This document shows positions 7,715 to 54,500 of a stretch of 64,000 bases of DNA, in pieces; within the stretch, counting starts at the first letter, position 1; the number at the start of each line of letters is the position of its first letter. The translations under genes and the position numbers were made by a program. The notes under the pieces are model-generated. The model was not told where the DNA came from and did not search any database. It saw nothing but the letters and a program-made list of their open reading frames with translations. The stretch is from Ophelia neglecta (lineage: Eukaryota): positions 12,896,001 to 12,960,000 of the forward strand of contig OZ260666.1 in assembly GCA_965285935.1 (NCBI GenBank). The letters run 5' to 3'.

Positions 7715-7854
7715 TTAGTGATCAAGTGAATTTATATGGAAGAAACACTGCAGAACAGTTCTAACTCTGGCACACTGGCACGTATATTCAATGGAGGTTA
7801 CGTCAATAACTAGACAAATTGGGCGCCTCTCATTGTGATTTCTTTTACACGGAA
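7715..7854 (-). CDS. Candidate terminal exon: cytoplasmic tail (IPCKRNHNERRPICLVIDVTSIEY...DH*)
   Basis: Acceptor ctatttcag|TT is in phase 1 and gives basic residues right after TM2. An alternative or additional acceptor (atatttaaag|G) exists near 7490, so the 3' end is uncertain. Confidence 0.4.
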
Positions 7855-16181: not shown

Positions 16182-16411
16182 GGGCCCTGTTTGTGAAGAG
16201 ATCTTATGTTTTGGATTAGTTTGTCTTATATCTAATTAGCCGAGATCTCATAAATCGGGGTTTACATTGACCAGGATTAAGTTTAAGACTAAAATGGCTT
16301 GGTATATACCAAATCCTGCTTCAAGAATCCCCGATCAGCAAGTTATCACTCAATAATCATTTTAATCACGTTTTAAGTTATGAGTTAAGACCACTTCTAG
16401 AAACCGGGCCC
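16182..16411. mobile_element. Non-autonomous DNA transposon (PIF/Harbinger-like MITE)
   Basis: Imperfect TIRs: gggccctgtttgtgaagagatcttat versus the reverse complement of the right end, gggcccggtttctagaagtggtcttaa. Confidence 0.55.
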
Positions 16412-17729: not shown

Positions 17730-17995
17730 AGACATATTTATTATGAATATTTACTGTACCCACCGGCCTGACCTTTATGGTAGTTTCATAGATAGGCCTT
17801 CTATTGATACAGTCACCTAATATTGGTTTATTGTCAAGAGCACAACATACAGTAATGCTGATCAATTGACTTTTAATACATGGTGTATATTTACACTGAC
17901 TACTTGATAGCTGATCAGCTGAGCTAGGTTTGATAGATTGATAATATTATCCAACCCCTTAATCTACCCTGCACGGACGGTGTAACCACCGTCTA
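17730..17995 (+). repeat. Old, highly diverged outlier copy of one array module
   Basis: ttatgaatatttactgtaccc...agagcacaacatacagtaatgctgatca...cagctgagctagg...cttaatctaccctgca matches the array module at 27735-28010 and 37380-37680. Confidence 0.75.
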
Positions 17996-20900
17996 ATTGT
18001 ATTACTCCCGGGGCGGTTTAAAACTGGCAGCATGCCATGATAGCCAGAAAGTGATGTTTTAATGTGCATATCGCAAGATGGCAATTCATATTTATGGTTA
18101 ATAGAGGACGACTCTATCAGGTTAACCTTGTTAAGTCGTAGCCATACAACATCATTATATATAGTGACTGTGCATTACATAACTGAATACATGCAAAACG
18201 TAATTCCTCCGGTCACACAATAACATATGTTATAGATAATGTGAAGTTGAAGCCGGTATGTTAGTGTGTTACCGGAGGTATTATGCCGGTAATAGAGCAT
18301 ATTTTGAAAGTGGGAAAAAGCTTATTTTCTCTCATTCAATAGCAAGCTGTAATCACAAAGTCAATTTTATGAAATTTGCCACTTTCTGTGTGCAATCCTT
18401 TAAAATAAAATACTCATTAAGTATATTGCTGGGGCCTTAATCCTGTTTCTTGAATAGCATCAGTCAGTAGCAAAATGTACCGTGTGGTGTGAATATTTAT
18501 ATATATTATAAAAGGACAACACGTACAAACCGTTTATTGTAAACGCTGGTGTCCACAGTACGCCAAATTTGCTAACCTTAGTTAAAGTTATTATTATGTA
18601 TATACGTAATCAGTCGTGGCGTTAGCATCATTCAAGCGTCCATCAGATGCAAAACATTAATGTATATACAAGAACCCTCTCAAATCCTACGGTAACATCA
18701 TATGAGCCTTATACGAATTCGACAGGCTTATGTTATTATGCGAGAAATCCAGCTAGCTAAAATGCCAACTAGATGAGCCATTGGGACTATATTCAGGGCA
18801 CATAACATGAACCCTTTATTTTGCCCCTCTGTTTTCTCAACTGGATCAGGCCCGACGTTTTATACTAAAATGATCAATTTTAGTTTCTTCATTTAATATG
18901 TAATCAAATGTTATCACTTTAAAAGAATACCTCCTAATATGACTTTTGGTGTTTGTCCATGAACCAAATAGTGGAAATAAGAATAGTTGCATCTCTCCAT
19001 GGTCACTGACACATAAATTGGTACCTATGCTAGGGCTTAGCCTACTTCTTTCAATACTACCATTTGTTTCCACGAACTGACATCAAATGTGCATGATTTG
19101 TTGAAAGAAAATGCATGAATTTGCGTCAATGATTAGCTCATTGGTAAGTAATAGTACTGATTATATTGCAAAAATGAACTTTTATACCCTAATGCGTGGT
19201 TATTAAGGGGCACGAAAGCAAGGATGAATAGGCAGCTATGGACGAGAAATTGTGGCTTGAGAGTAACATGATGTAACGGTAGTCATCGACTTGCCATTTA
19301 GCAGCCCAGTTTAAAAGAGTAAATGAGCCTAGAGCCGTATATGATGGTTTACATGCGTTGGGTACATGCGTATTTCGGCGTTATTTGGCGCAGACAAACA
19401 CAATAATGTCGGGAAATGTAAATCGTTATCATCAGACGCATGAATAGTTTGCTAATTTGGTTGCGCCTATATAATATAGAACAATAAGTCAATGACTAGG
19501 TTATTACTAGCTATTTCCGTGTTTTCATAACTAAAGTGGTATTACTAACGTGATGCATTGCGCATAGTTGTGACTTAATAGAACAAGGCAAGGCTAAGGT
19601 TGAGAGTATCTCATATGCACTAAACGTAAATTATGCTTTTGATCTAAACTGTTACCTATTGCACCATTCAGCAAAAGAAAAGTCAATCCCCCATCCCCCT
19701 CCCCTTCCTTCTTTTAGATTAGTATTATTTTACTTCCCTCGCATTTATGCGAGTGAAAAAATATGAGAAGTATTAGTGGTCTTAATTAAACTCTGGACCC
19801 AACTTAATATGGACCCAACAGTAGCTATGACATCTGACAGGTGAGACAAGTGGCCAATTAATCTTCCCTGTTTAAACACAACAAGTCGTTTATAACTGAT
19901 CATGATGATAAAATGTAACACTCATCGCCATGTGCCAATTTTTCATGCAGTTTTGTTGTTAATGACCTGAATTGTTATTTTATTCAAAGTGAAGGAAAGT
20001 CCCTGTCCTTTTGTGAACCACTTGTATAGATTATAATCCTCCAATAATCCTTGATACACACCTAGTGTACCATGACTTATCTATTATTTTATTTGTATGA
20101 CAAATTGTAGTTCGTTACATGGGGAATGATTAAATAATAGACAACATTGTCCATAGTGTGCCAACACATATAATGAACACCTTTTTTTCTATTCATTCAA
20201 TACTGCGAGAGTTTCCTGGGCATAAAATCATGTGGACAGCCGATTATATGATATCAACTAACAATGGACACTGCGGGTATCCAGCGTTGACCTTCGGGGT
20301 GCATGAAAACCCGGAAGATATACTCCAGCAATTTGGTTTGACCCATGAAGGCAAGTCAATATTTCCTTGACCGGTTACGCGTACCGTGCGTTGCATTGTC
20401 ATGGTTGGTTGAAATGCTAAACTGGCGCTTAATGTTTTACCTTATTACGCTTTATTTTAATACATTATTTTCTCAACTTCGCTGCAAAGGCTAAATCGAA
20501 TGTTGCTGGTGCCTATTCAAAGGAAATCAACTACATGTACAAAGTAATGTGTGTTCGGCGTCGGACGAGCGGTGGTGAGGCTATATAGTTGACACGGCCC
20601 TAGTTTGTCGACTTGGCGAAGGACATTTCGGGTACTTCTTTTTACTTTAGAGCTTCTCTTTAAAAAAAAAAGAGACATGGAAGTGCACCCAACTTTTCCT
20701 TCTGATACTTGTGTGTACATTAATACTTGTGAACCAAGTACAGTGAGTTCCCGAGGGCATTCTTTTCAAAACACTTTTCTTTTTAGGCTTCTAATAATAT
20801 GGTGCAAATTACATATTGGAGCATGAGGTCCAATAGTGGGGCGAGGGGGGGGGGGGGCACATGGCCAATGCTGGGCCATTAAAGACCTGTTTATCATAAA

Positions 20901-23900
20901 CACGCTGTACAAAATCAGTCAAATTCTGCGACTTTCTAACGACCTGTTTTTAAAGACGGCGCCGATATCACTTGATAGCGTATTGTACTAAATTTATAAT
21001 CCAGACGTCAAATCTTCTTGCACATTTAGGCGTGTACAATTCTTGTTAACGTCGTGGATGTATGCCTGTTAGCAGATAACCAGCACCACTCGCTGTAACT
21101 CCTGCAGCAGTAGTCCTGACCGGATTGAGGCGTAAACGCTGCATATACCGGGCCACGGGGTCTCAAGACTGTAGAATAGATTTAATCAATTTCATGAATA
21201 TAACATCACTGCCTTATGGCATCGTGCTTCGACACTATTTGATGTATATACAGTGGTACGAAAGGCTCTCCTGACACGTGAGAGAGAAAACAAAATGTGT
21301 CGCAAAAGGATTTAAAGCAGTTAAACAATTTCCCGTAAACTCTCAAGTCTTTTAACCTGTAATTTAAAAGGCTTTAAGGGAGACAGAGACAGATTTGTGT
21401 ATTGAAAATGTACCTCGGGTGAGGATAGGTAGTGGTGATAGGTGTGTGTGTGTGTGAGGGGGGGGGGGGGCTTGAAGATGTTTGGACGTTACATGATGGC
21501 GGATTAAAATAGGCTATCAATTCAACTGAAAGGGCGCGTGTAGATGGTGCATGTAGAAGAAGGGAAACACCCGGGCCTATGTATTGGTTAATTCTTGAAT
21601 TACCTCAGTGTAATTATATGTTCTACTATAGTCAAAATAGTCAGTAACGCGACTTAGTTTTTTGCGGTTTTTGACTTCTAAACTTCTGAGTTGAGTTCAG
21701 ACAATTTGCATATGGTCTTAGTCGGTCGCACGCATATCTCAAACCATATTTGAGACCAACATTGTCCGATAAGGCTTCTATCTTTGTTTTTTGAGGAGAC
21801 ATTGCCGGCGACTTGATATGACTCATTTATACTGTGACGCCGGCCGATTTAAAATGGCGCGAAAATTACAAGAAACGTACTATTATGTAAATTTGCGTTC
21901 TGTTTTTTAGTCATATCCTTATCATGCAATGACCTTGGTACGCCAGAGTACCCATGCTGACATAAGCATCGACAGCTCCAAATCCTAAGTCAATTGTTAT
22001 TTTGCCGGCGGGGTAGCCAATACTCAGTACTAACGATTTGGATCGAAGAATATTTAAAATATATACTATTTCACTGATATAAATTTTACCTGCAATGCTG
22101 ACTCACATGCAGTAAAACATTTTTTGGCTGTGGAATGTGAAATTTACTTATTGATGTCATAAATCAATGGGACCCTTACAACATATGTCAACAGTAGCTA
22201 TGGCAACCAGCCTCGACACTGTAGTGCCCTCAGATCAGGTTAACTGACCAATCTATCTTCTTTGAGTACACAAAACATAATAATAATTGAGTCAGTACAT
22301 GATAATACTTTACAGTGTATTAAGATAAAGAGATACCAGCTGATCAAATTAGGAGGCAAGTTTATGCCTACTAAGTGTTTATATGCATTCTGGTAGAAAG
22401 CTAGGTACAAGTTAAATTAAATATCTCATTGGTACGAAAGTCTCTCATTGCACGTGAGAGGGCAGACAAAATGTGGCTCAAAAGAAGTCAAAGCAGTTTA
22501 AAAGTTTTCCCTACACTGTTTAGTCTTTTAATTTGTAATTTAAAAAGTTTTAACAGGGACAGAGACAGATTTGTGTATTGAGAATGTCAATCGGGCGGGG
22601 ATAGATGGAACATTGGCTGCTGATGGGTTAGGAGCGTTACTTGGTTGCTGCACGTGGGTGGGGATGGGGAGGACATGCCATTGGGAAGTGACGTCAAAAG
22701 GAAAATATGGATTCCTGAAGGGTTGACCAAGTTATGTAATGTCAGATCAATGGTTTGATGCCGACTCGGGGTAGTTTGGGGCATACACTAGCAGTTACCA
22801 GATAAAAGACTGGCCTGGAGTGACGCAGAAGTTCTTTTTGCAACTTTTTACATTCGTGATCACCTCAGTATAAAGTAAAGTCGGTAACTAACATTATAAT
22901 ATTTAATAGACCTATTCTAGTAACGTCTGCCACAGTCATGAAATCCAAAACTGAAATACAGCCCTATGAAATAACTATTCGATCTGCACGTACCTCAAAA
23001 CATTAGCAAATGTTATTTCTCTATATAATGCCTCATTGACATAATACAGTAAGTAATTACTGACAAACATCATCTCTGGTAGCATAACCTTGGTATAAAA
23101 GCGGTAGAGCTTCGTGAAAATCCCTGTTTTTTAATTATTAAACAGTTCATGAAATTGGAGGTAAAGGCAGGTTATTGATCTGTATGCCTAGGCCTAGATA
23201 CTATTTAGACAAGAGCTGATATGGTGTGCATTAAAATGGTAGTGACACCTGGTGTTCGCTTATGGTAGCAACCCAATGGGTATGACTCGATATGGTTATC
23301 ATTGATCCCAGGGTTAGAATGGGGCGGGGTGTGACTGTGTGTGTTTGCATGTATTCGGGATGGGAAGGTGAAGGTACAAAGTACAAAGCAATTACTGCCC
23401 AGAAGAGCTGGAAAATACCTTGTGTTTTATTAATACTGACTGAAGGATGGCTGGGATGCTGGTAGTGGTGATAGGTGTCGCGGGGATGGGGTTGGGGCTG
23501 GGCGGGTAGGGATGTAACTGAGTACCTGAAGAGTTTTCGATGTCTCATGGCGACGAATTAAAACAGGCTATCAATTCAACTGAAAGGTCGTGCGTTTAGA
23601 AAAAGGGACACAAAATGATCAACAATCTCCGACGCAGGCATGTGCAATAATTTCTGGGTACATTGTTTTAAATGATAAAGCTAGATACTGAGTTGTGTAT
23701 TATCAGCTGAGTGTTCCTGATGCTTTCCGGCCTATGTATTCATTCATATTTGAATTACCTCAGTGAAGTTGTATTTTCTACTAGGCATTTTTCTCCTGTT
23801 TTGTTGACCTCTAATTGGGAATGGAAGGCATAATAATGGATTGGAATTCATGGACGGATGACTTGGTAATGTTGAAATATGGAGACGAGCAGATCAAGAT

Positions 23901-26463
23901 TACTAAATGACAGGGTATAAGGGGAAAAGCAAGCTGCAAAATGAGGGGAATTGAAACCGATGGGTAGGATTCAGTAATGTTTTCGTCAGGAATAAGGCGA
24001 ATCTCATATCGAGCTGCATTTATGTGAGGATATGGGGCAATAAGTGCCCTTTATAGCTAGACAAGCATATTTAGACAATTTGAAATGTTATTTATGAGTC
24101 ACGAAACCATTCCCCTTCATTCCCCTTTTTATTTACTCTATTATTTGAGAACCACCCAGTATTGTCATTATTTTTTGGAGTGTAAGGAGAAAGAAACCAT
24201 GTCGATGAGCACACATACTACATTATTTAATTCATTTCAGACTCGAATTCGGTATTACAAGTTAGATTCAAATATCACTCTATAAGAATAGTGAAAAGTA
24301 AATGGAAACAAGGCGCTATACAGCATTAAATTCTAGTCAGTAGTTTATTGCCACCCATTAATAATCCTATTATTAGGCAATGTAGTATATCAAATATGGT
24401 TTTACAGTAAATATTGATTACGGATATTTACTCTGCCCTTCGGATTGGCATGTTGGTGACTAGAAATACTATTTTCATATATATGCGCCTCTATTAACAT
24501 AGACTATCTACGACCATTCATTGTTTTCGTGTAGAGAGCACGAAACATAGTGATGCTGATCAGCTGACAGTTGATACAGTACCTATATTTGCAATCGCCA
24601 GTTGAGTTTACCAGCTGATCTAGGCTAGATGGATATGTAACACTTCCTCTGCCCTAATATACCCTGCATTGGCGAGCTCACCATTACAGCTTCGTACATG
24701 GTTCTCATAGTCAACAATGTTGAGAAAAAGCCTATAATTTCAAGCCGTCGGCCAATGGACGTAATTTATGGCACATTAACACACGTATCATGTAATTTTG
24801 TTGCCATATGATTCAGTAAGTTTGAATTGTATTCATGAGTTGCAAAGTTAAAACAATTAGTTTGTTTAAATTCTGTTAATAGGCATATGCTGAATCAATA
24901 AATGAGCCAATCAATCAATCGATCTATCAATCCAATCAAACACGCCTTTGGGTACTTGACGAGTTTCGCAAGCAAAAGGGTCATCAGTCGCCGAAGTAAG
25001 CATGATCAATGATTTTCCCTAAGACTAAAGAAGCTTGTGAGAAAAAGGCTCCGCGACTCGGGCCATGCTTACTAAGTGCCGAAGAATGGCTAAATATCTG
25101 GTGGCTTAAATGCTAATCTGAAAGCCATTTGGTCAAAGTTAAGCCCATAGAGAAGTTGGAGTATGGAAATGCAAACACAAAAACCTAACATTTTGCAGTT
25201 AATTGTCAGCGTCTTCGGCCCGCAAGAGATAGCAACGTTCGTGTCATGCCTTTTTTTTGGATCCATGCCATTGACATCGGCTTAGGACGTGTTTGACGAT
25301 GTAACATGGCAATATACTATATTCATACCTGGAAACAGGAGTTTAGACATAGTAATTTACCAGGAAAACTGCTCCACATTGTTATAGCAACGTTTAACAT
25401 CCCTCTATTGAATGATTTCAAATATCAAAAAGAGGCCAGTGCCAAAACATATTTAAGAACACCAAATAATATTTCCATGATATCAATTTTACCCGCAATG
25501 CTGACTCAGAGTACATCATATTATGGCTGTGGGGTGTGAAATTTACTTAATGATGTCATAATTAATGAGAGCCTTACAACATATGGCAACAGTAGCTATG
25601 GCTACCAGGCAACCAGTAGTGCCCACAGATCAGGTTAAGAGGACGATCTGTCTTTTTTGGTTACACAAAACAAGAAAATTATTGCGTCAGTACCTGATAA
25701 TGCTTTACACTGTACATGTATTAAGATAAAAGAGCTACCAGCTGATCAGATAAGTGGGCAAGTTGATGTATATACAGTGGTACGACAGTTCTTATTGCAC
25801 GTCAGAAGACAAACAAAATGTGGCACAAAAGGAGTCAAAGCAGTTAAACAATGTCCCTTATAGTGTTAAGACTTTTAATTTGTAATTTATAGGCTTTAAG
25901 AGAGACAGAGACAGATTTATGCATTGAACATGTAAATCGGGTGACGATAGATGGAATGTGGTTTGTTGAGGGGTTAATAGTATAATGCTGTTGCTTCAGG
26001 TGGGTGGGAATGGGGAGGGCGCGGCATTTAGAAGTGACGTGTAAGGGAAATTATGGATTCCTGGGGTTTGACCAAGTTATGTAATGACAGAGAGCCTCAT
26101 AGCTTGATGTCAAATCAGGAGCTTAAGGAAAACAGTGGCAGTCAACAGTTAAAGGACTGGCCCGGAGCGACACATCTGAGGGCTTCTTGTATCTATATAC
26201 ATTCGTAATCACCCCAATGTATAGTAAAGCCGGTAATTATCCACATAATCGTTAATAGACCTTATTCTGGTGTCGTATGCCACAGTCACAAAACCTAAAA
26301 CTTTAATACAGCGCTTTGAAATTACCATCCCATCTGCATGTACCCCACAACCTTAGCAAATGTTTTTTCTCTATATAATGCCACATTAATACAATTCAGT
26401 AAGTAATTACTAAGATACGTAATCTCTGGTAGCATAACTTTGATATAAAGCGGTAGAGCTTCA

Positions 26464-26473
26464 GGAAAATCCC
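26464..26473 (-). promoter_or_regulatory. NF-kB/Rel consensus site GGGATTTTCC (representative copy; also at 30234, 36039, 41295, 46604, 49271, with variants at 23115, 39432, 45535)
   Basis: Exact match to GGGRNYYYCC on the minus strand. Function is not demonstrated. Confidence 0.35.
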
Positions 26474-29400
26474 TGTTTGTTAATTACTATTATACAGTTT
26501 ATGAAAAAGGAGGTAAATGCAGGTTATTGATCTATATGCCTAGGTCTATATACTTATTATATATTAAATTTAAAGCTGACATGGTGTGCATTAAAATGGT
26601 AGTGACACCTGGTGTTCGCTTATGGTAGCAACCCAATGGGTATGACTTGAATTTATTGTCATGGTCCCTGGGTTAGAATGGGGCGGGGTGTGACTTTTTG
26701 TGTTTGAATGTGTGCGGGAGGTGGGAGGGGGGGGGGGTACAAAGTACAAAGGAATAAGTGCCCAGAAGAAGAGCTGGAAAACACCTTGTGTTTTATTAAT
26801 ACTGACTGAAGGTGGTTGGGATGCTGGTAGCGGTGATAGGTATGGCGGGGATGGGGGTGGGGGCTGGGTGGGGTGGAGAGTGGGGATGTTAGTGGGTACT
26901 TGAAGAGTTTTCGATGATTCATGGCGACGGATTAAAACAGGCTATCAATACAACTGAAAGGGTCGTGCGTATAGAAGAAGGGAAACAAAATGGTCAAAAA
27001 TCTCCGACGCAGGCATGTGCAATGATTTCTGGGTATATTGTTGTTTTAAATTATGAAGCTGGATATTGAGCTCTTTACATTCAGCTGAGTGTTCCTACTG
27101 CTTTCGGGTCTATCTATTGGTTCACTCTTGAATTACCTCAGTGAAGTTCTTTTTGTCGAGCACTAATTGGAATTAGAAGGCATAAAATGGGATTGGAGAT
27201 TATGGACGGGTGGCTTGGATATGTTGAAATAGGTCAGGATTACTAAATGACAGGGGACTAGCAGACGATGATAGGCTAATGCTTGCGGGTGTGAGGGGAA
27301 AAGGAAACTGCAAAATGAGTGGAATTGAAACAGATGGGTAGGATTCGGTAATGTTTTCGTCAGGAATACGGCGAATCTCAGGTCAGGCTGCATCTGTGAG
27401 TGCAAATGGCGCAATAAGTGCCCTTCATAGCTAGACAAGCATATTTAGACTATTTGGAAATGTTACTTATGGGTCACAAAACCATTTCCCTTCTTTCCCC
27501 TTTTTATAGGTCAGGATTACTAAATGACAGGTACACGTACTACATTTTTTCAATTAACTTCAGACTCTATATCAAGTTGGGTATTACAAGCAAGAGTCAA
27601 ATAATATTATATGTATAGTGAAAAATGGAAACTATGCGCAATTGAGCATTATATTCTAGTCAGTAGTATATTGCCACCCCTTAATAACCCTAATATTAGG
27701 CAATGTAGTATATCAAATATGGTTTTACAGTAAATATTGGTTATGGATATTTACTCTGCCCATCGGATTCGCCTGTTTGTGACTAAAAATGATATCTTCA
27801 TATATATGCGCCTCTATTTACATACGTGGTCTAAGGCCATTCATTGTTTACATGTAGAGAGCACGAAACACAGTGATGCTGATCAGCTGAGACCGATAGT
27901 TGATACAGTACCAATATTTGCAATCACCAGTTGAGTTTACCAGCTGAGCCAGGCCTGATGGATATGTAACACTTCCTCTGCCCTAATATACCCTGCATTG
28001 GCGAGGTTACCATTACAGCTTCGTACATGGTTCTCATAGTCAACAATGTTGAGAAAAAGCCTATCATTTGAAGCCGTCGACAAATGGACGTAATTTATGG
28101 AACATAAACACGTGTATCATGTAGTTCTGTTCCCATTTGACTCAGTAAGATTGAATTGTATTCATCAGTTGCAAAGATAAAACAATTAGTTTAAATGTGA
28201 CTTGTTTAAATTCTATTAATAGGCATATGATGAATCAATAAATGACCCAATCAATCAATTGATCGATCAATCCAATCAAACATGCCTTTGGGTAATTGAC
28301 GAGTTTCGCAAGCAAAAGGATGATCAGTCGCCGAAGTGAATTGGTCGATGATTTTCCCTAAGACTAAAAATGCTTGTGAGATTTGCAAATGGATATAACA
28401 TCGCTGCATATGGCGGTCTAATGGTACAAATCCGGCGTGAGCTATAACTACGCTTAAATCCGAAAATTAGTTCGTCGCACGTACACGATATTGCCGGGCG
28501 GCAATTATATATACCCCCGGGCGGTGATTATTTAAGCGTCAAGCGTAAACAATTCCTACGCCAATATCTACGCTCAAAGCATTAATTGCGGCTTTGTTTA
28601 TTTCAAACAGTACGATTATCCTATTGGCATCGTTTGTTTCCGATGCCCTGTAGGGCTTTTCACACAGCCCGGTGTCCGGAGTGTCGACCGTACGGTGCCT
28701 CCGGAAACCGAGTGCATCTCCACTTCTTCTACCCCTTCCTATCCATTAGGACATCAATTATGAATATTTTAAAGGCACCGGATGACCTAAACATATCCTA
28801 AAGTTTACAATGGCTTTTCTTAGACGCATCCTCGACTCGGGCCATGCTTACTTAGAGGGTGCCAAAAAAGTGATAAATATCTTAAAATATGCTGGTGGCT
28901 TAAAGCTCATCTGATTGCCATTTGGTCAAAGTTAAGACTCAAAGAGAAGTTCGAGTATGGAAAGGCAAACACAAACACTTGACATTCATCAATTAGTTGT
29001 CAGCTGCTTCGGCACACAAAAGCAAGGAACGTTCAGTTCATTTTTGCTTTTTATTCTTGTCATTGTTATCGGCTTGCGAAGTGTTTGGCGATGTAACATG
29101 GCATTAACTATATTCATACGTGGAAACAGGAGTTTAGACATAATATTTTCCTATGAAAACTGCTCCACATTGTTATAGCAATGTTTAACATGTCTCTAGT
29201 GAATGATTTCAATGAACAAAAGGAGGCCAGTGTCATAACATATCTACGAACTATATATACTATTCCAATGATATCAATTTACCTGCAATACTCACTCACA
29301 GTAAATCATATTTTTGGCTGTGGAATGTGAAATTTACTTAGTGATGTCATAAATCAATGGGACCTTACAAAATACGTCAAGAGTAGCTATGGCAACCAGC

Positions 29401-41400: not shown

Positions 41401-42726
41401 TTAAAGCTGACATGGTGTGCATTATAATGGTAGTGCCACCTGGTGTTCGCTGATGGTAGCAACCCAATGGGTATGACTTGAAATTATTGCCATGGTCCCT
41501 AGGTGAGAATGGGGCGGGGTGTGACTTTTTTTGTTTGAATGTGTGCGGGAGGGAGGGGGGGGGGAGTACAAAGGAATAAGTGCCCAGAAGAAGAGTTGGA
41601 ATACACCCGGTGTTTTATTAATACTGACTGAAGGTGGCTGGGATGCTGGTAGCGGTTATAGGTGTGGCGGGGATGGGGTTGGGGGCTGGGTGGGATGGAG
41701 AGTGGGGATGTTAGTGGGTACTTGAAGTGTTTTCGATGATTCATGGCGACGGATTAAAACAGGCTATAAATACAACTGAAAGGGTCGTGCGTATAGAAGA
41801 AGGGGAACAAAATGGTCAACAATCTCCGACGCAGGCATGTGCAATGATTTCTGGGTATATGGTTGTTTTAAATTATGAAGCTGGATATTGAGCTCTATAC
41901 ATTCAGAGTGTTCCTACTGCTTTCGGGTCTATCTATTGGTTCACTCTTGAATTACCTTAGTGAATTTCTATTTTTCGAGCAATAATTGGAATTAGAAGGC
42001 ATAAAAAGGGATTGGAGATTATGGACGGGTGGCTTGGTAATGTTGAAATAGATCAGGATTACTAAATGACAGGGGCCAAACAGATGAGGGGAATTAAAAC
42101 AGATGGGTAGGATTCGATAATGTTTTTGTCAGAAATACGGCAAATCTCATAGCTCGAGCTGCATTTATGTGTGCATATGGCGCAATAAGTGCCCTTCATA
42201 GCCAGACAAGCATATTTACACTATTTGGAAATGTTATTTATCAGACACAAAACCATTTTCCTTCATTCCCTTTTTTTATTTACTGTATTTGAGAACCACC
42301 CAGTATTGCCATTTGCGTTTTGGAGCGTAAGGAGAAAGAAACCATGTCGAGGAGCAAAAGTAAAAAAATGAAAACTAGGCGCAATGGAGCATTAAAATCT
42401 AGTCAGTACTTTGTTGCCACCCATTAATAACCTTAATATTAGGCAATGTAGTATATCAAATATGGTTTTACAGTAAATATTGATTACGGATATTTAATCT
42501 GCCCATCGGATTGTCCTGTTTGTGACTAAAAATGATATTTTCATATATATGCGTCTCTATTTACATACTTTGTCTAAGGCCATTCATTGTTTTCGTGTAG
42601 AGAGCACGAAACACAGTAATGCTGATCAGCTGAGAGTTGATACAACACAAATATTTGCAATCACCGGTTGAGTTTACCAGCTGAGCCAGGCTTGATTGAT
42701 ATGAAATAATTCCTCTGCCCTAATAT

Positions 42727-43674
42727 AGTCTAAATATGCTTGTCTGGCTATAAAGGGCACTTATTGCGCCATATGCACATATAAATGCAGCTCGAGCAAT
42801 GAGATTCGCCGTAATCCTGACCAAAACATAATCGTATTCTACCCATCTGAATCAATTCCCCTCATTTTGCAGCTTTTTTCCCCTCATACCCGCAAGCATC
42901 ATCCGCTAGTCCCCTGTCATTTAGTTATCCTGATCTGCTCGTCTCCCTAGTTCAACATTTCCAAGTCACCCGTCCATAAATTCCAATCCATTATTATGCT
43001 TTCTAATTCCCAATTAGAGGTCAACAAAACAAGGCATGAATCAAAAGCAGGCATGACACGAGCGTTGCTATCTCTTGCGGGCCGAAGACGCTGACAATTA
43101 ACTGCAAAATTTCAAGCTTTTATGTTTGCCTTCTCATACTCCAACTTCTTTTGCGCTTAACTTTGACCAGATGGCTTTCAGATTAGCATTTAAGTCACCA
43201 GCATGTTTTAAAGATATTTAGTAATTCTTCGGCTCTAAGTAAGCATGGAGTCGCAGAACCTTTTTCTTACAAGGTTTTTTAGTCTTAGGGGAAATCATTG
43301 AGCATGCTCACTTCGGCGACTGATGACACTTTTGCTTGCGAAACTCGTCAAGCAGCCAAAGGCATGTTTGATTGATTGATTGGGGCATTTATTGATTCGT
43401 CATATGCCTATTAACAGAATTTAAAGAAATCACATTAAAACTTATTGTTTTAACTTTGCAACTCATGAATATAATTCAATCTTACTGAGTCAAACGGGAA
43501 CAGAACAACATGTGCTTATATTCCATAAAATACGTCCATTGGCCGACGGCTTGAAATGATAGGATTTTTTCTCAACATTGTTGACTATGAGAACAATGTA
43601 AGAAGCTGTAATGGTAACTTCGCCAAAGCAGGGTATATTAAGGCAGAGGAAGTGTTTTATATCAATCAAGCCTG
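42727..43674 (-). repeat. Inverted segment of the array unit (two inverted pieces joined near 43030)
   Basis: 42727-43030 is the reverse complement of the module seen at 41985-42225 and 49955-50270. 43033-43674 is the reverse complement of 43748-44315. Confidence 0.92.
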
Positions 43675-46600
43675 GTGCTAATCAGCTGAGACTGAGAGTT
43701 GATACCATACCAATATTTGCAATCACCATTTGAGTTTACCAGCTGAGCCAGGCTTGATTGATATGAAATAATTCCTCTGCCCTAATATACCCTGCATTGG
43801 CGAGGTCACCATTACAACTTCTTACATTGTTCTCATAGTCAACAATGTTGAGAAAAAGCCTATTATTTCAAGCCGTCGACCAAAAGACTTAATTTATGGA
43901 ACATAATCACATGTATCATGTAGTTCTGTTCCCATTTGACTCAGTAAGATTGAATTGTATTATTGAGTTGCAAAGTTAAAACAGTTAGTTTTAATGTGAC
44001 TTCTTTAAATTCTATTAATAGGCCATAGACCATAGTGATCATGGTCAATGATTTTCCCTAAGACTAGAAAACCTTGTAAGAATAAAGGCTCTGCGACTCC
44101 ATGCTTACTTAGTGCCGAAGAATTGCTAAATATCTTAAAAACATGCTGGTGGATTAAATGCTAATCTGAAAGCCATTTGGTCAAAGTTAAGCGCAAAGAG
44201 AAGTTGGAGTATGAAAAGGCAAACATAAAGGCTTGAAATTTTGCAGTTAATTGTCAGCGTCTTCGGCCCGCAAGAGATAGCAAAGCTCGTGTCATGCCTG
44301 CTTTTGATTCATGCCACTGTCTTCGGGCTAGGGACATGTTTGAAGATGTAAAATGGCAATATACTATATTCATAGCTGAAAACAGGAGTTTAGACATATT
44401 ATTTTCCTATGAAAACTGCTCCACATTGTTATAACAACGTTTAACGTCCCTCTATTGAATGATTTCAAATAACAAAATGAGGCCAGTTCAATAACAAATT
44501 TACGAACACCATATACTATTGCCATGATATCCATTTACTTGCAATGCTAGCTCACAGTCAATCATATTATGGCTGCGGGATGTGAAATTGATCCGTTGAT
44601 GCCATAAATCAAACAACATATAGCAATGTATCTGTGGCTACGCGCCTCGCAACTGTAGTGTACAAAGATCAGGTTAAGTGGCCAAGTTATCTTCTTTGCG
44701 TACATACAACAACACATTTATTGCGTCAGTACATAATAATGCTTCCCACTGTATTAAGAAAAAGGGCTGTTAAAAATTTGTGGGCAATTTGAGGCCTACA
44801 CAGGGTTCATATGGATTCTGTTAGAAAGCCAGGTACAAGTTAAATTAATTATCACAGTGGTATGAAAGGCTCTCCTTGCACGGGGAGGGCTAACAAAAAG
44901 GTGGCGCAAAAGGAGTCAAAGCTCTTAAACAGTTTCCCGTGTAGTGTTAAGTCTTTTAGCCGGTAATTTAAATGGCCTTAAGGGAGACAGAGACAGATTT
45001 GTGTATTGTAAATGTCTATGGGGTGGGGATGGGTGCAAAATGGGCTATTTATGGTTAAGAGTTTATGTGGTTGTTGCAAGTGGGCAGGGATAGGGAGGGC
45101 GCGGCATTTGGAAATGACTTGAAAGGGAAATCATGGATTACTTGGGGTTTGACCAAGTTATGTAATGACAGTTTGATGCCAAATCGGGTGCTTTCAGGCA
45201 AACAGTAGCAGTTACCTTATAAAAAACAGACCCGGAGCCATGCATCCGAAGGTTTTCTTGTATCTATGTACCTTCGTGATTACGCCAATCTAAAGTAACG
45301 TCGGTCACTAAAACATAACCTTTAATAGATTTCATTCTGGTTTCGTATGCCACAGTCCCGAAATCCAAAACTATAGTACAGTGCCTTAAAGTGACCATTC
45401 CATCTGCATGTACCTCAAAAAAATTGAAACTTCTGTTTCTCTATATAATGCCTTATTGATATATTTCAGTACTTAATTACTAGCATCCCTAATCGCACGT
45501 AGCGTAACTTTGATATGAAAGCGGAAGAGCTTCAGGGACATCCCTGTTACTGGTTCCTAATATATGATTCATGGAAACGGAGGTAAATGCAGACTATTGA
45601 TCTGGATGCCTAGGCCAAAATACTAATAAGGCAAGAGCTCATATGGTGTGCAAAAATATGGTAGGGGTGCGACCGTTTGAGTTAACTTTTGTCAATTCAA
45701 TCCTTTAAAAAATTATTTAATTCGAATTAAATGTGTTGCAAACAAAGGAACACTATGGCTTGTCCCCTTTTAATAAATTTAATTAAAAGCATGCAAATCA
45801 GTAGCATTTTGAATAGGTTTTTTTCTTATCAGGCACTTGAATAAAGTAAACAGAATAATCGATTATTGAAGTTGCGATCGATTAGAAGAGTTGATCGCAA
45901 TTATCACTCAGATTACTATATTCGATGATTGTCCCTTCACTAATGTATCGTACTACCTGTATAATTCAGGCGGCAAATTGTCTTGCACATTTAGGCGTAA
46001 TCAATTCTTGAAAACGCCCCGTATGTTTGCCTGGTAGCAGATAACAAGCCTACGAGCACCACTCACTCTGACTCCTGCAGCAGTAACATTATATAGAAAC
46101 TGGGATATAAGCGTAAAAGCTGCATATTCCGGGCCACAGGGTCTCGGAATTAAAGAATAGATTTAAAACTACGCCGCGGCTTAAATTCGTCAATTTCTTA
46201 GACTCCGATGGCGATTAATATGATCTGAAGCATAAACAGTTCTGCGCCTGTCGATAAAAGCGGCAATACTATTTTTCAAACAGTACGGGTATCCTACTGG
46301 CACCGTTGGGTGTATCTTTTTTGCGTGTATTTCTATGTACATTCGTGATTACCTCAATAAAAAGTACAGTCGGTAACTAACAATATAATATGTAATAGAC
46401 CTATTCTAGTGTCGTATGCCACAGTCACGAAATTCAAAACTAAATTACAGCACCTTAAAATAACCATTCCATCTGCATGTACCTCAAAACATTAGCAAAT
46501 GTTATTTCTCTATGAAATGCCTCGTTGACACAATTAAGTAAGTAATTACTGACATACGTAATCTCTCGTAGCATAACTTTGATATAAAAGCGTTAGAGCT

Positions 46601-48124
46601 TTAGGAAAATCCCTGTTTGTTTATTACTATTATACAGTTCATGAAAACGAAGGTAAATGCAGGTTATTGATAAGTATGCCTAGGCCTATATACTTATTAT
46701 ATATTACTTTAAAGGCTGTTATGCTGTGCATTAAAATGGTAGTGACACCTGGTGTTCGCTGATGGTAGCAACCCAATGGGTATGACATGAAATTATTTTC
46801 ATGATCCCTGGGTTAGAATGGGGCGGGGTATGAGTGTGGGTTAGGATGAGGGGGGGGGGGAGGTTCAAAGTGCAAAGGAATAAGTGCCCAGAGGAAGAGC
46901 TGGGAAACAATGACTGAAGGTGGCTTGGTTGCTGGTAGTGGTGATAGGTGTGGCGGGGATGGGGGTGGGGGCTGGGTGGGATGGGGAGTGGGAATGTAAC
47001 TGGGTACTTGGTGAATTTTCGATGTCTCATGGCGACGGATTAAAATAGGCTATCAATTCAACTAAAAGGTTGTGTGTATAGAAGAAGGGAAACAAAATGG
47101 TCAACAATCTCCGTCACAGGCATGTGCAATGATTTCAGGGTATATTGTTTTAAATTATGAAGCTGGATATTTAGCTGTATACATTCAGCTGAGTGTTCCT
47201 AATGCTTTCCGGCCAATGAAGTTATATGTTCTACTATAGTCAAAACAGTCGTTTTGTGCGGTTTTTGACTTGTCAATATCTGAGTTGAGTTCTGACAATT
47301 TGCATATGGTCTTAAACGGTCGCACGCATTTATCACTCTATATTTCAAGACCACCATTGTCGGATAAGGCTTCTATCTCGCTTTTTGAGGAGCCATCGCC
47401 GGCAACTTGATATGACGTCATTTATACTGTGACGCCGGCCGATTGCATTTGGCGCGAAAATCCCAATAAACGTACTAGTTAGTAAATTTGCGTTTTGTAT
47501 TTTTGTCATGTCCTTATCATGCAATAATATCAGTACAACAGAGTACCCATGCAGAGTACCCGACAGCTCAAAATCCCGAGCCAATTACTATTTTTGCCGG
47601 CGGGGTAGCCTATGCTCAGTATAGTATCGATTGAATCAAAGAATCGGACGTTTAAAATTCAAGATACAATGCTGGGTAAATCGAGACCGGGAAAATATAG
47701 TTAAATGCGGTCTTATTGACTGTTGGTTTTAGATGTGTGAAGTAGCCACTTTGCATAGTAAGACTTTTTTTTTATTTTGCTCATAGTCAACAATGTTACT
47801 AAACATTTAGCTGACGGTTGACAGTTGACAATACACGATATTGTTGGGCGGCAATTATTTATACATCAGTCTGGGATTATTTTAACGTCAAGCGTAAACA
47901 TTTCCTACGCCTGTCAATATCTCCGCTAAAGCGTAAAAAGCGGCAAAATTTTGTTAAAAACAGTTCGGTTATTCTTCTGTCCACACAGCACGGTGTCCGA
48001 GGGGGGGGGGGTGACCGTACGGTGCCTCCGGAGCTGTGTGCACCTCCCCCTCTCCTGCCCCTCCCCATCCGGGCAGGAGAGGGGGAGGTGCACACTTTTA
48101 ATATCAATATCTTAAAGTCACCGG

Positions 48125-48500
48125 ATGACCTTTAGATATCCTAAAGCTTACATGGATTTCCTTAGACGCATCCTCGACGCGGGCAATGCCTACTTAGAGG
48201 CTGTCGAAGAATTGCTAAATATCTTAAAACATGCTGGTGGCTTAAATGCTCACCTAAATGCTATTTGGTCAAAGTTAAGCCTTAAACAGAAGTTCGAGTA
48301 TGGAAAGGCAAACAGAAAAACTTGACATTTATCAATTAATTTTCAGCGGTTTCGGCCAACAAGAGCTAGGAACGTTCGGGTCATGCTTGCTTTTTATTCT
48401 TGTTATAGCTATCGGCTTGCGAAGTGTTTGGCATTGTAACGTGACAATATACTATATTCATAGCTGGAAACAGGATTTTAGACATAATATTTTCCCATAA
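48125..48500 (+). pseudogene. Best-preserved copy of two overlapping small ORFs in the repeat unit (HMG-box-like ORF 48125-48325; hydrophobic ORF 48300-48500); probably a decayed coding remnant
   Basis: WSKLSLKQKFEY resembles the HMG helix-3 pattern WxxLSxxEKxxY. Homologous segments at about 28810, 34930, 39833 and 51745 carry frameshifts or deletions. Confidence 0.3.
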
Positions 48501-51500
48501 AAACTGGTCCTCCTTTTTATAGCAATGTATAACATGCCCCTACTAAATAATTTCAATAAACAAAAGGAAGACATAACATTTCTACGAATTTCATATACTA
48601 TCTCAATGATATAAAAATTTACCTGCAATGCTGACTTAGAGTAAAACATATTTTGGCTGTGGAATGTAAAATTTACTTAGTGAGGTCATAAATCAATGGA
48701 AAGTTTACAACGTATGTCAAGAGTAGCTATGGCAACCAGCCTCGACACTGTAGTGCCCTCGGAACAGGTTAAGTGGCCAATCTATCTTCTTTGAGTACAC
48801 AAAACATGACATTGCGTTAGTCCATGCTAATGCTTCACAGTGTATTATGATAAAGAGCTACCAGCTGCTGAAGGGTGGACAAAGTTATGTAATGTCAGCT
48901 CAATGGCTTGATGCCGAATCGGCGTAGTTTCTGGCTTACAGTAGCAATTTCCAGATAAAAGACTGGCCCGGAGCGATGCATCCGAAGTTCTTTTTGTATC
49001 TATGTACATTCGTGATCACCTCAGTATAAAGTATAGTCGGTAACTAACAATATAATATTTAATAGACCTATTCAAGTGTCGTCTGCCACAGTCCCGAAAT
49101 CCAAAACTAAAATACAGCGCCTTAAATTTACCATTCCATCTGCATGTACCTCAAAACATCAGAAACTGTTATTTCTCTATAAAATGCCTCGTTGACACAA
49201 TTCAGTAAGTAATTACTAAGGTACGTAATCTCTGGTAACATAACTTTGAAATAAAAGCGGTAGAGCTTCAGGAAAATCCCTGTTTATGATTACTATTATA
49301 CAGTTCATGAAAACGGAGGTAAATGCAGGTTATTGATCTGTATGCCTAGGTCTATATACTTATTAGGCAAGAGCTGATATGGTGTGTAATAAAATGGTTG
49401 TGACACCTGGGGTTCGCTTATGGTAGCAACCGAATGGGTATGACTTGAAATTGTTGTCATTGATCCCTGGGTTAGAATGGGGCGGGGTGTGACTGTGTGT
49501 GTTAGCATGTGTGCGGTGTGCATGTGTGCATGTGTACAAAGGAATCAGTGCCCAGAAGAAGAGGGCTGGAAAACACCTTGTGTTTTATTAATACTGACTG
49601 AAGGTGGCTGGGATGCTGGTAGTGGTGATAGGTGTGGCCGGGGATTGGGGTGGGGGCTAGGCGGGTAGGGATGTAACTGAGTACCTGAAGAGTTTTCGAT
49701 GTCTCGTGGCGACGGATTAAAAAAGACTATCAATTCAACTGAAAGGTCGTGCGTCTAGAAAAAAAGGGTCACAAAATGATCAACAATCTCCGACGCAGGC
49801 ATATGCAATGATTTCTGGGTATGTTGTTTTAAATCATAAAGCTAGATACTGAGTTGTGTATTTTCAGCTGAGTGTTCCTATTGCTTTCGGGCCTATGTAA
49901 TGGTTCATTCTTGAATTACCTCGGTGAAGTTGTATTTTCTACTAGGCATTTTCTCCTGTTTTGTTGACCTCTAATTGGGAATTGGAAGGCATAATAATGG
50001 ATTGGAATTTATGGACGGGTGACTTGGTAATGTTAAAATATGGAGACGAGTAGATCAAGATAACTAAATGACAGGGGACTAGCAGATGATGAAAGGCTAA
50101 TGCTTGCGGCTATGAGGGGAAAAGCAAGCTGCAAAATGAGGGGAATTGAAACAGATGGGTAGGATTCGGTAATGTTTTCGTCAGGAATACGGCGAATCTC
50201 GAGCTGAATTTATGTGTGCATATGGCGCAATAAGTGCCCTTCATAGCTAGACAAACATAGTTAGACTATTTGGAAATGTTATTCATGAGTAACAAAACCA
50301 TTCCCCTTCATTTCCCTTTTTATTTACTCTATTATTTGAGAACCATCCAGTATTGTCAATTTTTTGGAGTGTAAGGAGAAAGAAACCATGTCGATGAGCA
50401 CACGTACTACATTATTTAATAAATTTCAGACTCTATCTCGAATGGGGTATTACAAGCAAGGGTCAAATAGCACTCTGTATGAATAATGAAAAATAAATGG
50501 AAACAAGGCGCTTATCCTATTATTGGGCAATGTAGTATATCATATGTGGTATTACAGTAAATATTGGTTATGGATATTTACTCTGCCCTTCGGATTGGCC
50601 TGTTTGTGACTAGAAATACTATTTTCATATATATGCGCCTCTTTTAACATAGACTGTCTACGACCATTCATTGTTTTCGTGTAGAGAGCATGAAACACAG
50701 TGATGCTGATCAGCTGAGAGTTAATACAGTACCTATAGTTGCAATCAGCAGTTGAGTTTACAAGCTGAGCTAGGCTTGATGGATATGAAATACTTCCTCT
50801 GCCCTAATATACCCTGCATTGGCGAGGTTACCATTACAGCTTCGTACATTGTTCTCATAGTCAACAATGTTGAGAAAAAGCCTATCATTTCAAACCGTCG
50901 GCCAATGGACGTAATTTATGGAACATTAACACACGTATCATGTAGGTTTGTTGCCATATGATTCAGTAAGTTTGAATTGTATTCATGAGTTGCAAAGTTA
51001 AAACAATTAGTTTAAATGTGACTTGTTTAAATTCTGTTAATAGGCATATGATGAATCAATAAATGAGCAAATCAATCAATCGATCTATCATTCCAATCAA
51101 ACACGCCTTTGTATACTGGACGAGTTTCGCAAAAGGGTCATCAGTCGCCGGAGTGAGCATGGTCAATGATTTTCCCTAAGACTAAAGAAGCTTGTGAGAA
51201 AAAGGCTCCGCGACTCGGGCCATGCTTACCAAGTGCCGAAGAATTGCTAAATATCTTGAAAAAATGCTGGTGGATTAAATGCTAATCTGAAAGCTATTTG
51301 GTCAAAGTTAAGCCCAAAGAGAAGTTGGAGAATGAGAATGCAAACACAAAAACCTAACATTTTGCAGTTAATTGTCAGCGTCTTCGGCCCGCAAGAGATA
51401 GCAACGTTCGTGTTATGCCTTTTTTGATCCACGCCATTGACATCGGCTTAGGACGTGTTTGACGATGTAACATGGCAATATACTATATTCATACCTGGAA

Positions 51501-54500
51501 ACAGGAGTTTAGACATAATATTTTCCTAAGATAACTACTCCACATTGTTATAGCAACGTTTAACATCCCTCTATTCCGATGCCTGGGAGGACTTTTCACA
51601 CAGTACCCTGTCCGGGGGGTGACCGTACGGTGCATCCATGGACTGAGCGCAACTCCCCCTCTCCTACCCCTCCCTATCCGTGAGGACATCAAATATCAAT
51701 ACCTTAAATTCACAGGATGACCTTAAGATATCCTTAAGCTTACAATGCCTTTATTTAGACGTTTCCGCGACTCCGGCCATGATTACTTAGAGGCTGCTGA
51801 AGAATTGCTACAAATCTTTAAACATCTGGTGGCTTAAATGCTAATCTGAATGCCATTCGGTCAAAGTCAAGCCTCAAACAGAAGTTAGAGTATGGAAAGG
51901 CTTTACATTTATCAATTAATTGTCAGCTGCTTCGGCCAACAAGAGCTAGGAACGTTCGGGTCATGTTTGCTATTAATTCTTATCATTGTTACCGGCTTGC
52001 GAAGTGTTTGTCGGTGTAACATGGTCATGGACTATATTCATAACTATGGAAACAGGAGTTTAGACATAATAGTTTCCTATGAAAACTGCTCCTTCTTGTT
52101 ATAGCAACGTTTACCATTCAAATAAAAAAAGGATGCCAGTGCAATAACATATTTACGAACACCTTATACTTCGGTACTTCCATGATATCAATTTTACCTG
52201 CAATGCTGGTTCACAGTAAATCATATTATGGCTGTGGGATGTGAAATTTACTTATTGTTGTCATAAATCAATGGGACCCTGTAGTGCACTCAGATCAGGT
52301 TAAGTGGCCAATCTATCTTCATTGAGTACACAAAACATTACATTGCGTTAGTACATGCTAATGCTTTATACTGTATTAAGATAAAGGGCTACCAGCTGAT
52401 CAACATTTGTGGGAAATTTGAGGCCTACACAGGGTTTATATGCATTCTGTTAGAAAGGCAGGCGCAAGTTAAATTAATTATCAAATTGGTGCCAAAGGTT
52501 CTCTTGCACGTGAGAGGGCAAACAAAATGTGGCGCAAAAGGAATCAGAGCAGTTAAACAGTTTCCCTTATATTGTTAAGTATTTTAATTTGTAATTTAAA
52601 AGGCTTAAAGGGAGGCTGATACAGATTTGTGCATTGAAAAGGTCAAAGGGAAAGATGGAATATGGGCTGTTCACGGGTCAAGGGTTTTATGTGGTTGCTG
52701 CACGTGGGTGGGGATGGGAGGCATTTGGAAGTGACGTGAAAAGGGAATTTATGGAATCCTGGAGGGTAGACCAAGTTATGTTATGCCAGAGAGCCTAATG
52801 GATTAATGCCGAATTAATAGTTTCTGGCATACAATAGCAGTTACCGGGTAACAAATAGTCCCGGAGCAGTTAAAAGACTGGCCCTGGAGCGATGCATCCG
52901 ACGGTTTTCTTGTATCAATAGAGATTTCTCCGATATAAAGTATATTCGGTAATTAACAACATAATCATTAAAAGACATTATTCTGGTGTCGTATGCCACA
53001 ATCACGAAATCCAAAACTAAAATACAGCACCTTAAAGTTACCATTCCCTCTTCTTGTACCTTTAACAAAAAGATAATGTTATTTCTCTATATAATGCCTT
53101 ATTGATACATTCAGTAAATAATTACTAACATTCGTAATCGCTCGTGGCGTAACTTGGATATAATGATTACTTATACAAAATTCATGAGGTAAATGCAGGT
53201 TATTGATCTGTATGCCTAGGCTTACATACCTTTTGACAAGAGCACACATGGTGTGCAGTAAAATGGTGGTGACATCTGGTGTTCGGTTACTGTAGCAACT
53301 AAATGGGTATGACTTGACTTTATTGTCATTGATTCCAGTGTTAGAATGGGGGTAGGGTGTAACAGTCTGTGTTTGTATGTTTACGTGTTCGAGGGATGTG
53401 GTGAACAAAGGGATATAGTGCCTGATGAAGGGGGCTGGATGATACATAGTGGTTTAGCAAAACTGACTGCAGGTGGGTGCGGTGCTGGTCGTAGTGATAG
53501 GTGTGTATGTGTGTGTGTTTGCGGGGGGGGGGGGGAGGGTATAACTGGGTGCTTGAACAGTCTTGCGTTTTGCATGTTACATGACGACGGATTAAGACAG
53601 GGCATGAATTCAACTGAAGGGTCGCGTGTAGATGGTGCATAGAGAATAAGGGAAATACCCGCCTAAGTAGGCATGTGCTCTGGGTTCATTGTTTTAAATC
53701 ATGAAGCTGTATATTGAGGTTTGTATGTTATTTGCAGGCTCCTGGTGTCATCAGCTTAAACATCAGTGAGATTAGCTTGTCGCTAATAATGAATGTACAT
53801 TTATTTGAAATAACGTCTGTAGTACCGCGTTTAAGGAATCTCCCTACCCGTGATTGATTGTATCGCATTTATATGAAGTCAGAATTGTAAGCACATACTT
53901 AAGCTGCGATACGCCCATTAAGTATATTAGGCTTTCTTTATGCTTCGAAATTTAGAAGGTTTGTACAGATTCCTTCATTCGTTTCTGTGTATATTTGGCC
54001 ATTGAAGGCCCATTTATAAGCAAGATGTAATCATGTATGGGCCACATCAAAACAGTGGTGAACCTTGTGGGAGTGGTACATATCTGACCATGCACATTTG
54101 TAATCGATGAAATGATCGCATATTTGATTTGTATCACAGGTCACCTATCACCTGGGAAGGATGGCTGAGCGTGAACAAGTTAATGAGTATGTGTAGGAAA
54201 TATCTAGAAAGTGGAGTGGGTAGGTGTTTTCTTGTGTGGTTAAATTGTAGAAGTTGTTTGGGTCTGTGGAGGGCAGTAATTGTTTTAAAAAGTGGAGTTT
54301 GGGGTTAGAAAGTAGGTTATTATATATACGTATGTGAGATTGGTACTTGTACTTATATGGCAGGATATCGGTTCTTGCTCACGGCAAATAGAGAAAATTG
54401 TAGATAAACATTAATTGGTCACAACCATTCAATAATATGTACTTTAATACGTGAGCCCGTTGTAGGGGAATGGGGCATGGTGGTGAAGCGGCAAGGTATG

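Follow-up and report, generated by a model that had tools for sequence, protein, structure and literature searches.

An apparently non-coding array of layered tandem duplications beside an immunoglobulin-domain gene in Ophelia neglecta

We analysed a window of 64,000 nucleotides from Ophelia neglecta (GenBank assembly GCA_965285935.1, contig OZ260666.1, positions 12,896,001 to 12,960,000 of the forward strand); all positions given here count from the first letter of that window. It holds a minus-strand gene for an immunoglobulin (Ig)-domain protein and, 5' of that gene, a 34-kb array of repeated sequence. The array is a real, layered set of tandem duplications, non-coding as far as sequence can tell, for which we found no sequence evidence of function.

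A modular array between 20.5 and 54.35 kb

Within the window, 93% of the bases from 20,450 to 54,350 have a non-self BLASTN match (E<1e-5), compared to 2% of those outside, and a dot plot shows a block of internal homology from ~20.5 to 54.35 kb with nearly none beyond it. Both flanks of the array lie inside the window, and its length rises from 34 to 39 kb if relic copies are included. One anchor sequence occurs nine times, at spacings of 3403, 3791, 5904, 3317, 1794, 4241, 4082 and 3571 bp, and a neighbouring anchor, from a tiling of one unit, occurs ten times; an earlier note on this DNA, which had counted 9-10 copies of a complex unit, is thereby reproduced in all eight of its spacings. 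Overall, unit spacings range from 1.1 to 5.9 kb and are mostly 3.3-4.2 kb, and the units run head to tail save for one inverted segment. Tandem Repeats Finder (TRF) detected only one tandem repeat, of 38 bp, in the whole window, indicating that the units consist of complex sequence. The array has a GC content of 39.5% and an observed/expected (o/e) CpG ratio of 0.71, with a ratio of 0.71-0.77 in the flanks. Its longest open reading frame (ORF) is 146 aa, consistent with the earlier statement that it holds no long one.

We divided the array into modules A to G. Module A (2.1 kb, 2113 positions) is present as ten core copies, plus a stub of 370 bp and, at 21.2 kb, a fragment with deletions; B (1.3 kb) as seven forward copies, some of them partial; and C (0.44 kb) as six copies or fragments. 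Among the outer modules there are three copies of E and two each of D, F and G. The longest module order observed is D-E-C-A-B(-F). The array and its parts are:

20,500-54,350, plus strand: whole recognisable array, modules D, E, C, A, B, F and G in nested tandem duplications
21,235-21,605, plus strand: heavily deleted A fragment at the left edge, 75-81% identical to other A copies
22,061-25,049, plus strand: unit of A (from ~430 of 2113) then B, the B 94% identical to that at 49,953
25,050-28,381, plus strand: unit of full A then B, entered through the B-to-A junction
28,389-31,560, plus strand: unit of C, A (to ~1887) and a diverged B (70-79% to other B copies)
31,783-32,348, plus strand: outer module F, first copy, 80-83% identical to 53,796-54,350
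32,784-34,515, plus strand: second block head, made up of outer modules D and E, which recur at 20,519-21,209 (D, E) and 45,686-46,167 (E)
34,515-38,050, plus strand: unit of C, A (three internal deletions) and B
38,051-42,727, plus strand: an A cut off at ~1672, then a partial C, a full A (39,852-41,965) and a B cut off at ~934
42,723-43,673, minus strand: inverted segment, B 326-to-5, A 225-to-1, B 1326-to-895; identity to the forward copy that follows it 94-95%
43,673-45,665, plus strand: partial B, then A (to ~1580)
45,686-47,644, plus strand: third block head, with E, C fragments, the 3' half of A (46,332-47,212) and G (partner 21,606-22,060)
47,832-53,718, plus strand: C, A (355-bp deletion), B, A stub (51,207-51,575), partial C, and the last A, whose 3' half is the most diverged
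53,796-54,350, plus strand: second copy of outer module F, closing the array on the right

The duplication of the outer flanks, also noted earlier, was recovered (20,519-20,856 with 32,784-33,405, 73-77% identical; 31,783-32,348 with 53,796-54,350, 80%), but the count of two higher-order blocks drawn from it was not. Module E heads three blocks, at 20,980, 34,000 and 45,686 (the third head at 45.7 kb), and G is present twice, at 21,606 and 47,214, making a two-block model too simple. The segment at 21.0-25.4 kb is collinear with 45.9-51.6 kb through the run E, A fragment, G, A, B and A start, along which identity climbs from 81% (E) through 86% (G) to 94-95% (B and A start).

Older duplications may also lie within the unit itself: the end of A resembles the end of B (41,807-41,851 and 37,927-38,016), and a piece after F resembles the start of B (32,401-32,503 and 36,730-36,835). 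In module E, at 34,000-34,400, DNA folding is predicted to be stabler than in shuffles for five of nine windows (z -2.1 to -3.4; 20 shuffles each).

Divergence, mosaicism and tests for constraint

Pairwise identity is 75-95% among A copies and 70-94% among B copies. Over 65,922 aligned pair-bases we counted 11,332 substitutions and 1,059 indel events (10.7 to 1); 364 alignment columns are phylogenetically informative and 670 are singletons, and particular deletions are common to several copies (e.g. 54 bp in three, 12 bp in two). Given that the copies differ mostly by substitutions, many of them shared, read error is an unlikely source of these differences. The nearest relative of each copy switches along its length, such that the copies are mosaics, and neighbouring sites are less often incompatible than permuted ones (0.242 versus 0.30; none of 1000 permutations as low). 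Such switching, with closer sites being more compatible, is the pattern expected of unequal exchange or conversion, a general model cited in PMC4280042.

The nine A starts split by their left neighbour with 99/98 support: five, including the inverted one, follow B and four follow C, a grouping matched by 9-10 of 500 label shuffles. This suggests that the B-to-A junction most likely formed once and was then amplified, a reading of an unrooted tree in which "formed once" depends on C-A being the older context, as the order D-E-C-A would have it. The nested tandem amplification proposed in the earlier note is thus borne out, and refined by this grouping and by the mosaic structure of the copies.

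A profile search of the flanks revealed two diverged relics, outside the range assigned to the array in the earlier note, between the array and the Ig-domain gene and collinear with the array:

15,560-17,988, plus strand: relic copy on a single diagonal, A~585-680 at 15,560-15,657 and B 1-950 at 16,972-17,988; 57-66% identity
19,807-19,893, plus strand: second relic, A~540-650 element only

The first relic reaches E values down to 1e-13 and the element at 19,807 has E ~3e-6, as compared to 0.056 for the best of ten decoy hits; the 1.3 kb between the A and B parts of the first relic has no detectable homology. Identity is layered, being 57-66% between the relic B and the array copies, and, to the best partner, 72-83% in edge or outer parts and 84-96% in most inner tiles. 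The ends of tandem arrays reportedly age fastest (McAllister and Werren 1999).

Two structures interrupt the head-to-tail order:

43,033-44,315, no strand assigned: fold-back palindrome of ~1.3 kb
48,036-48,095, no strand assigned: perfect 25-bp stem with a 10-nt loop, in one of five aligned C copies

Since the inverted part shares 95% identity with the forward copy that immediately follows it, we take 43,033-44,315 to be a fold-back; its arms are 89-95% identical and its spacer is shorter than 100 bp. The 60-nt hairpin is the only perfect stem of at least 13 bp (loop up to 30) in the window, and is far more stable than expected (z = -9.8, none of 200 shuffles as stable), whereas its sister C copies are ordinary (z -1.2 to +0.7). 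The presence of a perfect stem in one copy and of the left arm alone in the four sisters fits a template-switch mutation, and the hairpin is probably a product of one.

We searched the array for coding content and found none. The earlier suggestion of a graveyard of an amplified gene does not hold up: there is no shared ORF (stops are common to the copies in 18 of 18 module-frames), no bias toward frame-preserving indels (36 of 182 short gaps are multiples of three) and no codon signal beyond chance. Whole-frame omega is 0.67-0.95, and the best stop-free window has p=0.007 among 1,286 overlapping windows, 7.8% of which reach p<0.05; the 15 best windows all hold majority stops. No Pfam match at cut-off was obtained in six-frame read-throughs of 19.2-22.1, 31.5-35.0, 35.45-38.1 and 38.05-41.0 kb, which span ~12 kb of the 34 kb and were picked to hold modules A-G once, or among 145 ORFs; of the 162 array ORFs of at least 55 aa, 43 were in that ORF scan and two in another.

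Nor did we detect a hidden RNA gene in each unit, as in a small nuclear RNA, 5S, tRNA or histone-type array: Rfam, ARAGORN and island scans gave no recurring signal, and the candidate was rejected. Rfam gave 11 matches at E<=1, none of them at gathering score and none recurring per unit, eight of the 11 being the hairpin at 48 kb, and ARAGORN found no tRNA. A search of phage records with one A copy gave no match. No conserved island was found in A at any of four window sizes (107-345 of 1000 shuffles as conserved). As judged from their alignments, the copies evolve without detectable constraint, and conservation within the array lends no support to the regulatory array suggested in the earlier note.

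Proposed history and competing explanations

We propose, and think it likely, that the array consists of old, nested, local tandem duplications of non-coding intergenic DNA that have been reshaped by exchange or conversion and by template switching, and that evolve neutrally. The sequence shows the map, the identities, the split of A starts by junction, the mosaicism and the absence of coding and conservation signals; we infer in which order the events took place, by what molecular mechanisms, and that the copies lack a function. A segment of ~6-7 kb (D-E-C-A-B-F) would first have been duplicated in tandem more than once, leaving as remnants of these early rounds the outer modules (~76-83%) and the two relics (15.6-18 kb and 19.8 kb). 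A single deletion or junction event would then have fused the end of B to the start of A; the shorter A-B unit so generated, ~3.4 kb long, would have undergone further amplification. Exchange between misaligned neighbours, or gene conversion among them, may have kept the inner copies alike and made them mosaic while the edge copies decayed. Lastly, replication template switching or end-joining could account for the deletions, for the inversion behind the fold-back and for the 25-bp hairpin, which would have formed de novo. Module junctions show short overlaps or small insertions (23 panels judged by eye, with no null).

Several observations weigh against this neutral history. The gradient toward the edges is imperfect: the inner A copies at 38-39.6 and 44.6-45.6 kb are also diverged (81-88%). 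Both relics keep the same ~90-bp element of A, with the rest of A gone (one of 35 and none of 13 windows significant), a coincidence that uniform neutral decay predicts poorly. When all B copies are used, a 150-bp conserved island appears at 27,914-28,063 (4/1000), although we rejected this candidate because it is lost once the comparison is limited to those four B copies that are recent and near-full (264-957 of 1000 shuffles). The best-conserved 16-mer, at 25,322-25,337, is in the top 2% of windows, albeit chosen post hoc. Moreover, about ten copies at 10-20% divergence give limited power, and short binding sites could be constrained unseen.

We also considered whether particular sequences favour breakage. 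G-quadruplexes were rejected as drivers: of 28 A breakpoints listed by hand, five have such a motif within 50 bp, where 5.25 are expected (p=0.62). Fourteen of the 17 strict G-quadruplex motifs lie within the array, and all 17 are on the plus strand. GC skew is positive over 10,000-60,000, and the 17-22 G-quadruplex-type motifs, including those outside the array, are all on the plus strand. A separate possible hotspot is a small hairpin at which four of the six C-bearing copies break within ~14 bp, two of which may share an origin; the hairpin is intact at 28,620-28,654, and the equivalent sites are 39,656, 46,308, 47,979 and 51,575.

One alternative, which we regard as improbable though worth weighing, is that a non-autonomous transposon, either Helitron/Helentron-like or a patchwork of old elements, forms the unit or once seeded it and was copied in tandem. 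Modules C, G and E differ in character from the rest, being CpG-rich (o/e 1.05-1.41, except for the C copy at 47.8 kb with 0.87) compared to A and B (0.55-0.66) and carrying short palindromes. Module A and one C re-entry point both start with TC, and the C breakpoint cluster just described would also fit this reading. Helitron copies that are tandem and 3'-truncated have been described (PMC7492417). Nonetheless, we did not find a hairpin-plus-CTRR end common to the copies, all hits of a both-strand scan being copy-specific, and a profile search, which would miss 11-bp repeats, detected no inverted homology between module ends. No transposase, reverse transcriptase or Rep/helicase domain was found in the four six-frame read-throughs or the 145 ORFs. 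The start of A is continuous with C in four copies, with the B-to-A junction apparently having arisen once, and the relics adjoin the array in register, pointing to a local origin.

A weak resemblance of A~1515 to a two-copy element at 59.1 and 63.8 kb (E 0.012-0.027) would favour a transposon. That element is an inverted pair, 59,067-59,214 on the plus strand and 63,784-63,921 on the minus strand, 71% identical over 150 bp and 4.6 kb apart, with weak further matches at 63,092-63,131 and in module A; it could represent a dispersed repeat present twice, or terminal inverted repeats surviving as relics.

A second alternative, which we consider unlikely, is that the locus is a source of small RNAs: read-through of the fold-back would yield a long hairpin RNA that is diced to small interfering RNAs (siRNAs) matching the other copies, and the 60-nt hairpin could be a nascent microRNA (miRNA). 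The fold-back, which the earlier note did not see, gives the small-RNA source suggested there a structural footing: it is predicted to form one long interrupted stem as a single RNA strand (-896 kcal/mol, with no shuffle control at that length), and the stability of the short hairpin is exceptional relative to both shuffles and sister copies. Template switching is described as an origin of new miRNA hairpins (bioRxiv 2023.04.19.537475). However, the long hairpin has gathered mismatches and a ~100-bp deletion in one arm, and the Rfam miRNA matches score 30-40 bits against cut-offs of 74-230. Nor is there significant CpG hypermutation of the kind that would suggest long silencing (59 of 106 CG versus 89 of 188 GC sites mutated, p=0.18). 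Germline CpG methylation over the history of the array was likewise rejected, there being no significant excess of CpG transitions and only a weak trend in B (cell fraction 0.19 versus 0.10). Small-RNA production would be compatible with neutral tandem duplication as a by-product.

It is less likely still, in our estimation, that the array amplifies a cis-regulatory element of the Ig-domain gene, namely A~540-680 beside an RFX X-box-like motif, with copy number tuning expression. The array lies 5' of an intact Ig-domain gene, and of all of A only the ~90-bp element can be detected in both relics, where it lies 3.7 and 8 kb upstream of the ATG. An X-box consensus has 11 matches within the array, at two sites in each unit, and one in the rest of the window. 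On the other hand, the motif was picked post hoc and the 11 matches are copies of two sites, which rank at the 48th and 16th percentile of among-copy conservation; the X-box is degenerate in one relic and absent from the other.

A combination of the two preceding ideas seems to us very unlikely: the array would be a self-regulating control region that multiplies an upstream cis-element (A~540-680), with fold-back siRNAs silencing the copies and rearrangements altering the expression of a lineage-specific two-pass Ig-domain receptor between individuals.

A dead protein-coding gene or gene family as the origin of the unit is largely refuted, and we give this reading hardly any credence. Two minus-strand frames are free of a shared stop for 110-122 codons at 26,559-26,944, and one copy has its 146-aa ORF there (28 of 1000 local shuffles as long), but neither of the two further copies tested stands out (130 and 403 of 1000 shuffles as long), open-frame omega in that stretch is 0.63-0.88 (p>0.1), a search among proteins of 80-256 aa found no homologue of the 146-aa ORF, and the array has no homology to the exons of the Ig gene. 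The stretch is C-rich and G-poor, such that composition explains the recurring minus-strand peptide-like stretch near 26.6 kb.

Equally slight is the chance of an assembly artefact, caused by noisy reads or by the end-to-end joining of two haplotypes. In its favour, parts of blocks 1 and 3 are collinear and 94-95% identical, a level that heterozygous marine invertebrates can approach. Against it, substitutions exceed indels 10.7 to 1 with 364 informative columns, identity along the collinear blocks varies from 81% to 95%, and the copy trees are well supported. Collapse of near-identical copies may nevertheless hide extra units.

Comparison with known systems, and the neighbouring gene

The published systems discussed here are compared by structure, and no sequence homology to Dxz4 is implied. 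The nearest in outline is mouse Dxz4 (PMC3491370), a gene-adjacent array of 36 kb with about seven multi-kb monomers that are variable in length and >5% diverged, features to which the array in Ophelia is alike. Mouse Dxz4 is also not as GC-rich as primate DXZ4 (PMC3491370), which we count as a further likeness. Unlike the Ophelia array, Dxz4 has a CTCF motif conserved across mammals, is transcribed, and varies in length through a variable number tandem repeat that lies internally (PMC3491370); the Ophelia copies are 5-25% diverged, vary by deletion and module shuffling, include a fold-back and hold no conserved island. Human macrosatellites such as D4Z4, DXZ4, RNU2 and TAF11-like (PMC5687341) share the head-to-tail arrangement of complex 3-4-kb units. 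However, they extend up to hundreds of kb, are CpG-rich and consist of near-identical units that often encode RNA or protein (PMC5687341), with <1% divergence between neighbouring monomers in human DXZ4 (PMC3491370/PMC5687341), whereas the array described here is 34 kb, 39.5% GC with a CpG o/e of 0.71, heterogeneous and non-coding. The earlier term "macrosatellite-like" therefore stands for the head-to-tail multi-kb units and falls for the size, CpG-richness and homogeneity of the class; by analogy, the array could be called a small degenerate macrosatellite in resemblance only.

Invertebrate parallels are also partial. The sea-urchin SpTransformer (Sp185/333) locus (PMC8634487) is alike in having tandem duplications of 2.7-4.5 kb at an immune-type locus, but each of those duplications carries a gene and has GA/GAT microsatellite edges (PMC8634487), whereas in Ophelia the gene lies outside the repeat and there are no such edges. 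HINE/tandem Helitrons (PMC7492417) similarly form tandem, variably truncated copies in an invertebrate genome, and some modules here have palindromes; HINEs, as described there, have central repeats of 140-180 bp between fixed subterminal inverted repeat (subTIR) modules and are dispersed, whereas we found no shared terminal structure. The fold-back resembles described fold-back inverted duplications, in which an inverted copy is joined to its forward template over a short spacer and formation involves microhomology (PMC3907307). The human examples are megabase-sized, with terminal deletions and kb-sized spacers (PMC3907307); the fold-back here is ~1 kb, interstitial, with a spacer of <100 bp, and sits inside an older array. 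Lastly, template-switch mutations (bioRxiv 2023.04.19.537475) include perfect hairpins apparently made in a single step, as at 48,036-48,095. Our literature search on the combination of macrosatellite, invertebrate, tandem and immunoglobulin found no paper, which says little about novelty.

As it stands, the array cleanly illustrates the way in which complex tandem arrays arise and decay in an invertebrate, which is useful for studies of repeat evolution but not surprising. A single window displays several age layers (relics ~62%, outer modules ~80%, inner copies up to 95%), together with a fold-back, a junction that was probably formed once and then multiplied, and a hairpin for which four sister copies still show the state before the mutation. 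The array would gain in importance if the element kept by the relics, or the hairpin of the fold-back, were to act on the Ig-domain gene.

That gene, which the earlier note had placed beside the array, is real. Its ATG lies at 11,863, ~8.6 kb from the edge of the array, and our hand-built model has four compatible variants:

7,408-11,863, minus strand: neighbouring gene, outside the repeat; seven or eight GT-AG coding exons, open frame of 509-533 aa

The predicted product combines a long N-terminal region bearing tyrosines with a first hydrophobic segment, a stalk rich in Ser/Thr, two Ig-like domains and another hydrophobic segment. A V-set Ig domain was recognised with E 5e-6, alongside a second Ig-like stretch. 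The C-terminal hydrophobic segment is above the threshold of 2.0 and the earlier one, identified by eye, is below it; the product thus has an apparent, unusual two-pass topology in the model. Word-index protein searches with the exons returned no homologue, and HMMER gave 134 matches, mostly to generic Ig stretches, the best full-length match having 38% identity and none being a named homologue.

At the opposite end of the array, the right edge (54,350-55,000) is a G-rich single-copy stretch; internally it holds a weak direct repeat (66% over 142 bp), and 59 bp of it match 18,508-18,566.

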